A stretch of 64,000 nt of DNA, from positions 30,091 to 94,090 of the forward strand of contig CAYLOO010000002.1 in assembly GCA_964385355.1 (NCBI GenBank), written 5' to 3'. Below are positions 25,841 to 43,617 of this stretch, one piece after another; within the stretch, counting starts at the first letter, position 1; every line of letters starts with the position of its first letter. Source of the stretch: an uncultured Anaerolineaceae bacterium. GTDB taxonomy: Bacteria; Chloroflexota; Anaerolineae; Anaerolineales; E44-bin32. A model generated the notes under the pieces. It ran no database searches. It was given only the letters and a program-made list of their open reading frames with translations, and was not told the DNA's origin. The position numbers were made by a program, and so were the translations under genes.

Positions 25841-27457
25841 ATGACCAAGCGAATCACTCCAACCAAGGACCATCCATCGTCGAACCCTGTCGTAATCGAC
25901 GGCAACCATCTTACACTAGCGAACCTTAAATCCGTTGTTCGCTTCAAAACCCGAGTTGATCTCGATAAATCAGCAAGAGAGAGAATAAACCAATCCGCTA
26001 AGAATCTTAAACGGCTTGCATCTTCTAAAGCCCCAATCTATGGTGTGAATACTGGTTACGGTATTTTTGCCGATCGGCGTCTGGATTCCTCCCAGGCATC
26101 GAAGATCTCGGACAATCTGGTTCTGAGTCACGCAGTAGCGGTCGGAGATCCTTTCTCAGAGGAGGTCGTTAGAGCTGCGATTCTCATTCGGGCAAACTCT
26201 CTTGCACATGGATACTCTGGCGTAAGAACCGAAATCATCGACGTCCTTCTTTCGTTATTAAATAAAGGTGTAACACCTTACATTCCCTCTCAAGGCTCAT
26301 TAGGTTCATCGGGTGATCTCGCCCAATTAGCTCAACTCGCACTTGTTATTACAAATTCCGACGCTCGTGAGTTTGGAGATACGGAGGTGCAAGCCTGGTT
26401 CGAAAACAGCCTTCTCCCTGGTCATGAGGCAATGAAAAAAGCAGGTATCGAGCCTATTGTACTCGGCCCAAAGGAAGGCTTAGCGCTCACGAACGGCGCA
26501 ACCTTTTCGACGGCTCTTCTCGCTTTGGCCGTCATAGATTCGCAGCGAGTGCTTTTCTCGAATGAGATCGCTTCATCTATGACCCTCGATGCCCTCCTTG
26601 GCGTTTCTGCCGCGTTTGATGAACGAATCCATGCAGCGAGGCCTTACACCGGGCAACAAGCCGTTGCTCAGAGAATGCGCAACCTTATTGCAGGCAGCCA
26701 GCTTATTGATAGCACTGCAAGGGTGCAGGACGCTTACAGCCTACGCTGCTGCCCTCAAATCCTTGGTCCGATTTGGGATACGCTCGCGTACGCAGAAAAG
26801 GTATGCAATATTGAGATTAACTCAGCAACCGATAATCCCCTGCTATTTGGCGATGATGTCCTCTCAGGGGGAAATTTCCATGGGGAACCCGTGGGTCTTG
26901 CCGCCGATTATCTAAAAATAGCACTTTCGGAGGCTGGATCAATATCAGAGAGGCGAATCTTCAGACTTTTGTCTGAGGATATGAATGCTAACCTCCCGGC
27001 CATGCTTATCGCAGATCGCAGCAAGATCGGTCTCTACTCGGGCTTAATGATGCTTCATTACACTGCCGGTTCGTTGGCGCTTGAAAATCAAGCTCTTGCT
27101 AATCCTAACTCAATTTTCTCTGTGCCTACTTCTGCCGGCCAGGAGGACCATAACGCCAACTCGACTACGGCTGCCAGGAATCTTCGACTCATAGTTGAGA
27201 ACTTGACCTGCATCACCGCAATCGAAATTATCTGCGCTTCCCAAGCTCTCGATTTGCGCATGAAAGAAACCCCCGGGAAATCTCCAGGCTCAGGAACACT
27301 TGTTGCGCTTAAACACATCCGTAAATCTATCGCTTTTATCGAGCGCGACCGGCCATACTCAGTAGACATCAAGCTCATCAGCGAAGTAATCCAATCTGGA
27401 TCACTGCTCACCGCCCTTTATGATGCGGGGTTTGACGATTACCCCCCTGTGCTATAA
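25841..27457 (+). CDS. hutH: Histidine ammonia-lyase-like MIO-family enzyme
   Basis: YGVNTGYG, LSHAVAVG, and GSLGSSGDLAQLAQ at the MIO site (usually GASGDLAPLAH). C-terminal SAGQEDHNAN. Confidence 0.8.
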   Translation: MTKRITPTKDHPSSNPVVIDGNHLTLANLKSVVRFKTRVDLDKSARERINQSAKNLKRLASSKAPIYGVNTGYGIFADRRLDSSQASKISDNLVLSHAVAVGDPFSEEVVRAAILIRANSLAHGYSGVRTEIIDVLLSLLNKGVTPYIPSQGSLGSSGDLAQLAQLALVITNSDAREFGDTEVQAWFENSLLPGHEAMKKAGIEPIVLGPKEGLALTNGATFSTALLALAVIDSQRVLFSNEIASSMTLDALLGVSAAFDERIHAARPYTGQQAVAQRMRNLIAGSQLIDSTARVQDAYSLRCCPQILGPIWDTLAYAEKVCNIEINSATDNPLLFGDDVLSGGNFHGEPVGLAADYLKIALSEAGSISERRIFRLLSEDMNANLPAMLIADRSKIGLYSGLMMLHYTAGSLALENQALANPNSIFSVPTSAGQEDHNANSTTAARNLRLIVENLTCITAIEIICASQALDLRMKETPGKSPGSGTLVALKHIRKSIAFIERDRPYSVDIKLISEVIQSGSLLTALYDAGFDDYPPVL

Positions 27458-27458
27458 T
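27450..27458 (+). promoter_or_regulatory. Extended -10 element TGCTATAAT overlapping the hutH stop codon
   Basis: Read directly. It is the same TGnTAnAAT form seen upstream of ssrA, mnmA and other genes in this window. Confidence 0.55.
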
Positions 27459-27466
27459 CTTTTATC

Positions 27467-27608
27467 ATGAAAGCTGGGTCCACGCACCACAAACGAGAGG
27501 TATCAGCCCGCCATCTAGTGGGCATAGTGCGCGCGTAGACCCACCCGCTCTGACAAGAAGGGATCGTTTAAAAAGACGGCGTGGGCTGCGCTCAAGTCGT
27601 CTTTTTTT
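27467..27608 (+). promoter_or_regulatory. Candidate His-responsive attenuator leader of hisS (23-codon His-His mini-ORF, alternative hairpins, terminator)
   Basis: ORF MKAGSTHHKREVSARHLVGIVRA spans 27467-27538. Segment 27475-27485 pairs with 27533-27543. Segment 27540-27548 can instead pair with 27579-27585, which is the 5' arm of the terminator. Confidence 0.4.
27570..27608 (+). terminator. Intrinsic terminator immediately upstream of the hisS ribosome-binding site
   Basis: Stem 27570-27580 with 27596-27606, inner stem GGGC/GCUC, then T7 (27602-27608). GGAGG at 27614 and ATG at 27624 follow. Confidence 0.75.
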
Positions 27609-27623
27609 GTAACGGAGGCATCA

Positions 27624-28901
27624 ATGCCAATCATTCAACCAGTTCGAGGCACGCGCGATTTCTACCCGGAGAATATGGCCTTTCGCCAGTGGCTCAACAC
27701 TCAGATCCGAGAGGCATCCACGCAATTTGGGTATCAGGAATTCGATGGCCCCTTTCTGGAGCGCCTGGAACTCTATGCCGCCAAATCCGGTGACGAGCTC
27801 GTTAAAGAGCAATCCTATGTTTTTCCCGATCGAAGTGGTTCGATGATCACGCTCCGCCCAGAACTCACTCCATCTCTTGCACGTATGGTTGCGCAGCGCG
27901 GCAAAGGCCTCAACCTGCCTCTTCGCTGGTGGTCTTTTGGGCCTTTTTGGCGATACGAGCGAAAACAGAAAGGCCGATCCCGAGAATTCTTCCAGTGGAA
28001 TATCGACCTTATCGGCGTCGACACCCCTGAAGCGGATGCAGAGCTTGTAGCTGTAGCGGCGACACTTTTTCGCAATGTTGGGCTGACAGCAGATATGATC
28101 CGCATCAAAATTAACAACCGGCGCCTTGCAGAGAAACGGCTCGAGGAAATCGGTATACAGGGCGAGCTGCTGCCAATAACTTTCCGTCTCATCGATCGTC
28201 AAGATCGCATGGCGCCAGAGGCATGGAAATCTTATACGCTCGAAAGCGGATTAAACGAAGATCAATTCGCAGGTCTCGCGAACATGCTCGAAGATCTTGA
28301 TGCATGGAAATCTTCACCGGAATTGCTTCAATGCTTCAATGCGGCCAAATCGCTCGGCATGGATGAGTATTTGGACTATGACCCGACCGTAATCCGGGGC
28401 CTCGATTACTACACCGGGACGGTTTATGAAGCCAGGGACGTCAAAGGTAATCATCGTTCGATCCTCGGCGGAGGTCGATACGACGATCTAGTCTCTGTGG
28501 TCGGCGGCAACCCTATCCCTGGGACTGGTTTCGCGATGGGAGATGTCGTATTCGGATTGGTCCTGGACGAAAACGGGATTAAACCTGATTTGCGCGTGAG
28601 TCCGACGGACATCTTGATCACAACTTTTGAAGATGGCGGTGAGAGCGCTTCTATTCAAATCGCTGCAGAGCTGCGTGATGCCGGTTATCGGGTTGAATGG
28701 TATCCTCAACCTGTACGCCTTCAACGGCAGCTAAAGTACGCAGATCGTAATGAAATCCCACTGGTTGTAATTATTGGTCCCGATGAAATGGAGTCGGATA
28801 AGGTCTCGCTGAAGGATATGGTCTCTGGCGAGCAGGAGACGATTGCTCGCAGCGACCTTCGAGCACGGATAAAAGCTCTGCTTGCTGGTAAATTGCCTTG
28901 A
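27624..28901 (+). CDS. hisS: Histidine--tRNA ligase
   Basis: MPIIQPVRGTRDFYPE, class II motifs (FRYERKQKGRSREFFQWNID, GGGRYDDL) and a C-terminal anticodon-binding domain. Confidence 0.95.
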   Translation: MPIIQPVRGTRDFYPENMAFRQWLNTQIREASTQFGYQEFDGPFLERLELYAAKSGDELVKEQSYVFPDRSGSMITLRPELTPSLARMVAQRGKGLNLPLRWWSFGPFWRYERKQKGRSREFFQWNIDLIGVDTPEADAELVAVAATLFRNVGLTADMIRIKINNRRLAEKRLEEIGIQGELLPITFRLIDRQDRMAPEAWKSYTLESGLNEDQFAGLANMLEDLDAWKSSPELLQCFNAAKSLGMDEYLDYDPTVIRGLDYYTGTVYEARDVKGNHRSILGGGRYDDLVSVVGGNPIPGTGFAMGDVVFGLVLDENGIKPDLRVSPTDILITTFEDGGESASIQIAAELRDAGYRVEWYPQPVRLQRQLKYADRNEIPLVVIIGPDEMESDKVSLKDMVSGEQETIARSDLRARIKALLAGKLP

Positions 28902-29004: not shown

Positions 29005-29077
29005 GGCGAGGGTAGTTCAGTGGCAGAACGCGCGCCTGTGGAGCGCGATGTCGCGGGTTCGAATCCCGTCCCTCGCC
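29005..29077 (+). tRNA. tRNA-His (anticodon GTG) with encoded G-1
   Basis: Cloverleaf read by eye: G-1 plus acceptor GCGAGGG/CCCTCGC, D-stem GTTC/GAAC, anticodon loop CTGTGGA, T-arm GCGGG-TTCGAAT-CCCGT, discriminator C73. CCA is not encoded. Confidence 0.92.
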
Positions 29078-29162
29078 CTGACATAACCTTAATAACGAAA
29101 GCTCTAGCTTTTCCTTTTATAGAATTGGCGAGGACTTGGATCCCTTCAGTCACCAATTCGAG

Positions 29163-43161: not shown

Positions 43162-43617
43162 ATGACCGAAAAAGCTACGCTCACCCCACCTGATAACACC
43201 TCTGCGCCCGTTGAGGCCGCCCCCTCGGGCAATAAGATTCCCACGATATGGATCGTACTGGGAGTGGTGTTTTTTCTCTTTCTTATTGCATTAATAATCG
43301 TTGCTGTGAACGCAATGGTCAAAAACCCCGCACAAACTGAAACCTTGCGCGACATTATGATAATTTTTATGGCCTTCGAATCAATAATTATCGGCCTAGC
43401 ACTTGTTATCTTGCTTGTTCAGTTAGCCCGTCTGACGAACCTCCTTCAATACGAGATCAGGCCGATACTCGAAGCCACAAATGAGACAGTCGGTTCGTTG
43501 CGTGGAACTACCAAATTTCTCAGCGATAACCTTGTAACACCTGTTGTCAAAGCGAACAGCTCATTCGCGGCGCTAAGACGCGCGATCGAGTTATTCGACT
43601 TTCGCCGCACTAAGTAA
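43162..43617 (+). CDS. DUF948-like membrane-anchored protein
   Basis: Single N-terminal TM followed by a helical region. It is paired with a YtxH-like gene, as in many genomes. The family call is tentative. Confidence 0.6.
   Translation: MTEKATLTPPDNTSAPVEAAPSGNKIPTIWIVLGVVFFLFLIALIIVAVNAMVKNPAQTETLRDIMIIFMAFESIIIGLALVILLVQLARLTNLLQYEIRPILEATNETVGSLRGTTKFLSDNLVTPVVKANSSFAALRRAIELFDFRRTK

Follow-up and report, generated by a model that had tools for sequence, protein, structure and literature searches.

A candidate histidine-sensing leader-peptide attenuator ahead of hisS in Anaerolineales

Transcription attenuation by leader peptides has been studied by experiment mostly in Proteobacteria, and predictions extend to Actinobacteria and a few Firmicutes. 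Here we analyse the 166 bases ahead of hisS, the gene for histidine–tRNA ligase, in a DNA stretch of 64,000 nucleotides from an uncultured Anaerolineaceae bacterium of the Chloroflexota; we call the whole stretch the window, count positions from its first letter, and refer to the 166 bases as the leader. All the evidence is computational and comes from sequence, folding and the comparison of relatives. On this evidence we consider it very likely that the leader is a ribosome-mediated (leader-peptide) transcription attenuator, which would set the expression of hisS by the supply of charged tRNA-His. This type of switch is known; it has not been described for hisS in Chloroflexota, and our full-text literature searches found no paper combining Chloroflexi, a leader peptide and transcription attenuation.

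Several described systems resemble the leader in part. With hisL of Escherichia coli and Salmonella it shares a short open reading frame (ORF) with His codons, three pairings between successive segments (1:2, 2:3 and 3:4), an intrinsic terminator and, as proposed here, the sensing of His-tRNA-His by ribosome position. However, there is no homology in sequence or structure, the corresponding Rfam family (His_leader, RF00514) giving no match at E<=10, and while hisL has seven His codons in a row ahead of a biosynthetic operon, the ORF in the window has three (two of them in tandem), precedes a synthetase gene, lacks a Shine-Dalgarno sequence, probably starts at the very 5' end of its transcript and belongs to the Chloroflexota. 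The pheM leader of E. coli pheST is similar in that it attenuates an aminoacyl-tRNA synthetase gene by means of cognate codons in a leader peptide. That leader has its own ribosome-binding site. Leader-peptide attenuators have also been predicted for trpS2 and leuS of Streptomyces (PMC1262725); these and pheST differ from the window in amino acid, lineage and RNA sequence.

Closer in target is the His leader peptide predicted in bacilli before a hisS paralogue (hisS*) and hisZ (Naville & Gautheret 2010, PMC2965389), which, like ours, is a computational prediction and places a small ORF carrying successive His codons, with a premature terminator, before a gene of the hisS family. There, however, the leader serves a recent paralogue and hisZ while the main hisS is under a T-box, whereas in the window hisS itself stands in conserved synteny with tRNA-His and has no T-box, and the sequences are unrelated. 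The T-box of Firmicutes hisS (RF00230) has the same gene, the same tRNA-His charging signal and the same terminator/antiterminator output, but it senses the uncharged tRNA directly and needs no translation, and its defining motifs were not found at the window leader. Finally, the leaderless polycysteine short ORFs of mycobacteria (Canestrari et al., bioRxiv 10.1101/834739) are sensory ORFs in which stalling at a single amino acid switches the RNA structure; they act on translation, whereas the leader in the window would act through an intrinsic terminator and leaves the hisS Shine-Dalgarno sequence open in all predicted folds. Judged from its sequence, the leader is best read as a new member of the leader-peptide attenuator class, unrelated in sequence to the others and controlling hisS in Anaerolineales.

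A histidine-coded reading frame between promoter and terminator

The leader combines a promoter and an ORF with cognate codons, a terminator ahead of the gene, an antiterminator exclusive with it, and a stop codon placed to mask the antiterminator strand. On the forward strand, which carries all the features described here, an extended -10 element, TGCTATAAT (27450..27458, with TGn followed by TATAAT at 27453-58), is conserved in relatives. The ATG at 27467 starts 8 nt past the -10 hexamer and opens an ORF of 23 codons, MKAGSTHHKREVSARHLVGIVRA (27467..27538), with its TAG stop at 27536-38. Its His codons form two sensor clusters, the tandem CAC CAC at 27485..27490 and a CAT at 27512..27514. 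Downstream lies an intrinsic terminator, A5-GACGGCGUGGGC-UGC-GCUCAAGUCGUC-U7 (27570..27608, -18.7 kcal/mol), which pairs 27570-80 with 27596-606, has an inner stem of 27582-86 with 27590-94, and ends in U7 at 27602-08. The Shine-Dalgarno sequence of hisS, GGAGG (27614..27618), stands 5 nt 3' of the U run, and the hisS ATG follows at 27624. What a first-pass annotation of the DNA had listed was found in each case at the position it gave; that annotation had also claimed that no promoter fits between terminator and gene. Indeed, the gap from the U run to the hisS ATG is just 15 nt, leaving no room for a promoter, so that every hisS transcript must read past the terminator. A simple scan for promoters and terminators was uninformative, as it overlooked both the promoter, with its non-canonical -35 spacing, and the full terminator, with its bulged stem.

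Taken alone, the window is just moderately unusual (fold z = -2.39; three His in 23 codons), and the case thus rests on comparison with relatives. The HisRS protein is closest to those of uncultured Anaerolineales metagenome-assembled genomes (MAGs) of the Chloroflexota, at 86-92% identity. We assembled 160 Anaerolineae hisS loci, 80 from genomes and 80 from metagenomes, chosen by the protein only; L numbers below refer to individual loci. They fall into two classes. About 60 loci (class 1) have an extended -10 box 140-250 nt 5' of hisS; they also carry a strong hairpin or terminator, the end of which is 15-80 nt (mostly 17-33) short of the gene, and most of these leaders contain a short His ORF. 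The remaining loci (class 2) have a proximal box of the TGTTAAAAT type 30-60 nt 5' of hisS, with neither terminator nor ORF. Counted by itself, an extended -10 box at -140 to -250 relative to hisS is kept by 62 related loci, some of them without the gene that precedes the leader in the window, hutH.

The leader peptides diverge and yet hold two to seven His residues, as in MNHHLQHTHCL, MNIHLLIHIHHHGKIMGI, MFVINCAHHHASSFHG and MNTQTVRPIHHHFHAHHHLGYCRLGRV; close relatives of the window keep three to four His codons, at shifting positions. Enrichment was measured over 55 non-redundant leaders and 300 dinucleotide shuffles. To allow for selection, we took for each amino acid its highest count in any ORF of at least 5 codons and summed these maxima over the leaders. 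The His score was 162 against 58.8+-7.0 in the shuffles (z = 14.8), and none of the 300 shuffles reached it. The scores of N, D, C, Q, E, K, F and Y all had |z| <= 2, making His the sole enriched amino acid among those tested.

The position of the start codon offers a further regularity. A His ORF is present in 39 leaders and, taking the in-frame start that lies furthest upstream, 28 of them have it (as an ATG in 26) 6-10 nt past the -10 hexamer, while shuffles gave 2.1+-1.4 such cases and 7 at most. Since the spacing played no part in choosing the ORFs, it supports both the reading frame and the promoter independently. It also indicates that the leader peptide is probably made from a leaderless mRNA, and the ORF in the window itself has the features of a leaderless sensory short ORF, namely a -10 box 6-10 nt upstream of the start and no Shine-Dalgarno sequence ahead of it. 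Translation from a leaderless transcript, with a transcription start site that we infer from this spacing, appears rather probable to us. Leaderless genes with a TAtaaT signal have been reported for some Chloroflexi (PMC3160421).

The window contains just five TGNTATAAT boxes, all five on the forward strand and directly 5' of forward-strand genes or of the transfer-messenger RNA (tmRNA) gene. The latter, at 1778-2174 (tag peptide ANRTDYAALPVAA), has a TGTTATAAT box ending 8 nt ahead of the annotated start (region 1761-2174), a placement which points to such boxes as the real promoters of this organism. Another TGTTATAAT box occupies 43145-53, and 8 nt beyond it the ATG at 43162 opens an ORF of 151 amino acids that runs to 43617 and has no Pfam match. 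With a spacing identical to that of the hisS leader, this ORF is a candidate leaderless mRNA of a full-length gene. The same window held no second convincing combination of a mini-ORF rich in one amino acid with a terminator.

Competing RNA structures and the proposed switch

Three structures compete in the leader. Segment 1 (27475..27490), which includes the tandem His codons, is the 5' arm of an anti-antiterminator hairpin and pairs in minimum free energy folds with 27527-27543; the whole hairpin, 27475-27543, has -29.4 kcal/mol and encloses in its loop an inner hairpin, GCCCGC/GUGGGC (27506..27523). Segment 2 (27527..27551) contains the TAG stop and the core CCCACCCG (27540-47). Its part 27527-43 is the strand that pairs with segment 1, and its part 27534-51 can instead pair with segment 3 (27574..27590), the terminator 5' arm and loop, which is common to antiterminator and terminator. 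This antiterminator comprises 16 bp (CGUAG/CUGCG, CCCAC/GUGGG, CCG/CGG and UCU/AGA), has -21.4 kcal/mol and uses up the terminator 5' arm. The isolated energies, -29.4 for 1:2, -21.4 for 2:3 and -18.7 kcal/mol for 3:4, thus stand in the same order as in the trp attenuator. The first-pass annotation had seen the pairing of 27475-27485 with 27533-27543, which proves to be a part of the 1:2 hairpin, as well as an alternative pairing with the terminator 5' arm, which is real and longer than it had described.

We folded the leader under three ribosome states. As free RNA, the window leader forms the 1:2 hairpin, the inner hairpin and the terminator together. With a ribosome on the His codons, 27534-51 pairs with 27574-90. 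A ribosome on the stop codon would cover about 27521-48; in this state the terminator arm is left without a pairing partner (-5.5 kcal/mol) and the terminator is free to form. In the clade of the window, of the 14-16 bases of the terminator arm, 2-5 pair upstream in free RNA and 11-12 with a ribosome at the His codon, while with a ribosome at the stop none do in the window, L001 and L082, and 5 of 14 do in L004. Over all 39 leaders, the mean number of arm bases paired is 9.2 in the stalled state against 4.5 in the stop state. In every predicted fold the Shine-Dalgarno sequence of hisS is unsequestered, so the output would be transcriptional. We also observed that the hexamer GUGGGC occurs twice, at 27518-27523 (the 3' arm of the inner hairpin) and at 27581-27586 (in the terminator 5' arm), and the His-codon strand GCC-C[G/A]C (27506-11) can therefore pair with either copy; a second possible antiterminator is 27504-11 with 27581-88.

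The antiterminator pairing is conserved in register. In a MAFFT alignment of the real sequences from 25 loci of the window's family, 88.3% of cells were paired, compared with no more than 48% when the partner was slid by 1-3 columns. In all 25 the stop codon of the ORF directly abuts the core of segment 2, the C-rich strand that pairs with the terminator arm. This arm reads ACGG[CU]G-X-GGGC in the family, X being the position of U27582, and the pair A27543-U27582 is A-U in 17 loci and G-C in four (L014, L019, L104 and L091, from two sequence groups). Because X is a bulge in most terminators, its covariation is better explained by the antiterminator than by the terminator. Conversely, C27580 is a bulge in the antiterminator, whereas its terminator pair covaries, being CG in 17 loci, UA in 5 and UG in 3. 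The outer helix of the terminator is 94.3% paired over the 25 loci, with three pairs changed on both sides. Moreover, segment 2 pairs better with its own terminator arm (-16.17 kcal/mol) than with swapped arms (-14.28 kcal/mol), and none of 5000 permutations reached the observed value (p < 2e-4). The middle of the ORF is free to vary among the seven closest sequences, in which TAGACCCACCCGCUCUGA and the terminator arm are invariant. Segment 1 is paired in 93.9% of cells in seven close relatives, and the inner hairpin has a compensatory change from G-C to A-U in L003.

Together with the His ORF that is conserved while its peptide diverges, and the stop that abuts the pairing strand, these exclusive pairings support the trp/his-type logic that the first-pass annotation had proposed. 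The transcription start, the translation of the ORF, the stalling and the regulatory outcome are what we infer from them, and the switch would work as follows. Transcription would start about 7-9 nt past the extended -10 box, at or beside the AUG of the 23-codon ORF, and a ribosome would load on the 5' end as it emerges, by leaderless initiation. With plentiful His-tRNA-His, the ribosome would reach the UAG at 27536-38 and cover segment 2 (27534-51), segment 3 would then pair with segment 4, and RNA polymerase would terminate at the U7 run, 16 nt ahead of hisS. With scarce His-tRNA-His, the ribosome would stall at CAC CAC (27485-90) or at CAU (27512), keeping segment 1 or the inner hairpin open; segment 2 would thereby be free to form the 2:3 pairing, no terminator would form and hisS would be transcribed. 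If the ORF is not translated at all, the 1:2 hairpin would tie up segment 2 and the terminator would form. Transcripts arriving from hutH would face the same gate.

Gene neighbourhood and spread of the leader

The gene upstream of the leader, hutH (25841..27457), encodes histidine ammonia-lyase (NCBIfam TIGR01225, 549.8 bits against a cut-off of 539), and the regulated gene, hisS (27624..28901), is identified by TIGR00442 (353.7 bits, cut-off 286.75). A scan of the window found no further his genes near the locus. The hutH stop codon, TAA at 27455-57, falls within the -10 box of the leader. hutH is upstream of the leader in about 30 loci; its stop falls within the -10 box or precedes it by 10-70 nt, and hutH transcripts should thus also run into the attenuator. 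Many of the loci with the leader share the hutH-hisS synteny (noted for the window, L001-L004, L007, L008, L081, L082 and L099), and in several lineages the TAA of hutH is the TAA of the promoter's TATAAT; ribosomes finishing hutH, like its transcripts, thus come in 9 nt ahead of the leader ATG, and re-initiation could follow. The leader is nevertheless kept without hutH upstream in L011, L014, L015, L018, L019, L025, L037 and L068, and is therefore not merely a hutH terminator.

A second group of leaders (L025, L069, L123, L127, L140, L152 and L160) has a different segment 2, GGGUCGCGUC, which mimics the 3' arm of the terminator. It is located at the stop codon in five of these seven loci, and 12 or 22 nt after the stop in L140 and L152. 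The mimic is a conserved box, GGGTCGCGTCTG[AG], and the group has 44-77 nt between terminator and hisS. L037 and L068, in turn, have a TATATT promoter and an unrelated CCCCCGG/CGGGGG terminator. In the second group and in these two loci, the logic is retained and the RNA sequence is not. Evenly balanced, in our view, is the wider proposal of an independently evolved attenuator with a leaderless His-sensing peptide, in which ribosome loading would be coupled to transcription initiation with no need of a Shine-Dalgarno sequence, a His-dependent gate would stand between the catabolic gene hutH and hisS, and at least two or three RNA architectures would have arisen at the locus, alike only in their His codons, in a stop codon beside the antiterminator and in a terminator.

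Downstream, the tRNA-His(GTG) gene (29006-29078) follows 104 nt after hisS on the same strand, an arrangement found in nearly all Anaerolineae loci examined, with or without the leader. In 41 of 55 loci this gene has its own extended -10 box (TGNTAnAAT), which in the window is TGTTAGAAT at 28927-35, so that the tRNA gene would not depend on the attenuator. The distance from this box to the tRNA is about 22 nt in most loci, 79-81 nt in most of the window's clade and 69 nt in L001, and in some loci the hisS stop codon overlaps the box. Co-regulation of tRNA-His by the attenuator, considered as a main claim, was dropped in view of this box; read-through into the tRNA gene may still occur. The ATG at the position of a leaderless start, the widespread synteny of hutH, leader, hisS and tRNA-His, and the tRNA-His promoter had not been part of the first-pass annotation.

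Alternative readings and significance

Other explanations account for parts of these data. The hairpin might be a plain terminator of hutH, with the mini-ORF a chance frame that is not translated and hisS expressed by constitutive leaky read-through: it stands 113 nt past the hutH stop, no other terminator follows hutH, hutH precedes the leader in those roughly 30 loci, and the three His codons of the window are weak evidence alone. However, a conserved -10 box separates hutH from the hairpin, the loci listed above keep promoter, His ORF and terminator without any hutH, and a chance ORF would not hold the His enrichment, the start spacing and the abutting stop while its sequence diverges; we regard this reading as improbable. 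A related doubt concerns what is sensed rather than whether the ORF is translated. A leaderless ORF with an antiterminator-masking stop and a terminator would answer any slowing of the leading ribosome, for example under global starvation or antibiotics, and some relatives have just one or two His codons; but His is the only amino acid found enriched and the regulated gene is hisS, which makes a general sensor without specificity for His very improbable.

Alternatively, the terminator may be controlled by a protein or a ligand, with the ORF incidental. In the Bacillus hut operon, HutP binds UAG repeats near the terminator. The leader adjoins hutH and has three UAG triplets, at 27515, 27525 and 27536, which would be in keeping with a His-activated RNA-binding protein of the HutP kind. 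Yet the first of these triplets is replaced in relatives (CAAGTG in L001 and L004, CGTGTG in L003), the second is lost in L002, L003 and L082, and their spacing of 10-11 nt does not fit a HutP site. Outside the paired segments the sequence is so variable that it offers no sign of a conserved ligand pocket for a riboswitch. Neither version has an Rfam match or explains the in-frame His codons and the placement of start and stop, and we give this explanation very little chance indeed. The first-pass annotation had kept as its fallback a non-canonical T-box. In such a leader, or in another kind that senses tRNA, the C73-CCA end of uncharged tRNA-His would pair with UGGG (27582-85) and the anticodon with a looped His codon, and an antiterminator would thereby be stabilised. 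In favour of it, UGGG complements the CCCA 3' end of tRNA-His (whose gene, at 29006-29078, has C73), T-boxes regulate hisS in Firmicutes (PMC2965389), and the leader does have His codons. Against this, C or A replaces the U of UGGG in relatives, covarying with the upstream strand (AU 17, GC 4), and such changes would destroy pairing to the invariant CCA end of the tRNA. The His codons, moreover, follow the reading frame set by a conserved start and stop and occupy no fixed structural position; Stem I, the specifier loop and the T-box 14-mer are all absent, and the leader is just about 145 nt long. Rfam searches of 27350-27700 at E<=10 gave a single, spurious match (Rubella_3) and no T-box (RF00230), His_leader or other cis-regulatory family; at the gathering threshold, no cis-regulatory family was found in the whole window, and 20 related loci gave tRNAs only. 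A T-box here is hardly credible.

Several findings also count against leader-peptide attenuation itself, or narrow it. The 2:3 duplex energies are just modestly better than those of shuffled sequences (mean z = -1.2), since the segments are GC-rich, and the case for this pairing relies on register and covariation instead of shuffle z-scores. The covariation is in turn thin, as one antiterminator pair is changed on both sides, in four loci that probably represent two lineages, and in the close clade segments 2 and 3 hardly vary, which speaks neither for nor against the pairing. The 1:2 anti-antiterminator is not consistently predicted outside the window's clade among the 39 folded leaders; thus, we would not extend the full four-segment model to the family as a whole. 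As for the promoter, its -35 region is non-canonical, with TTGACG just 15 nt from the -10 hexamer. The window's ORF has three His codons in 23, one having been lost relative to close relatives: the codon before CAT 27512 is CGC in the window and CAC in all six of them.

Furthermore, L005/L084/L085, L006/L090, L010/L023, L012 and L098 have no closed His-rich ORF despite a similar layout of promoter and hairpin. These loci show a distal TGCTATAAT, a leader of 140-190 nt and a hairpin; in L010, an ATG ORF with His codons runs on through the terminator without a stop, and L005 is the closest outgroup of the window's clade. They could reflect decay, a different mechanism or mis-called ORFs. Finally, the leader is absent from the four named cultured Anaerolineae species among the loci fetched, Bellilinea caldifistulae, Leptolinea tardivitalis, Anaerolinea thermolimosa and A. 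thermophila (one of them represented by a MAG), all of which are class 2; accordingly, it has never been seen in a studied strain.

With these limits, leader-peptide attenuation accounts for the His codons, the exclusive pairings and the positions of start and stop together. Annotating the element would be useful, lest the mini-ORF and terminator be misread as a hutH terminator. If the reading is true, Anaerolineales would have a conserved hisS attenuator; the mechanism would then be known from another deep phylum, and one more synthetase gene would be governed by the codons of its own amino acid, in a lineage without the T-box solution. The leader would also provide a clean natural case of a leaderless sensory ORF driving an intrinsic terminator. 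Moreover, the roughly 40 non-redundant leaders, with peptides alike in little but their His codons, would represent a regulatory logic that has been conserved while its sequence turned over.

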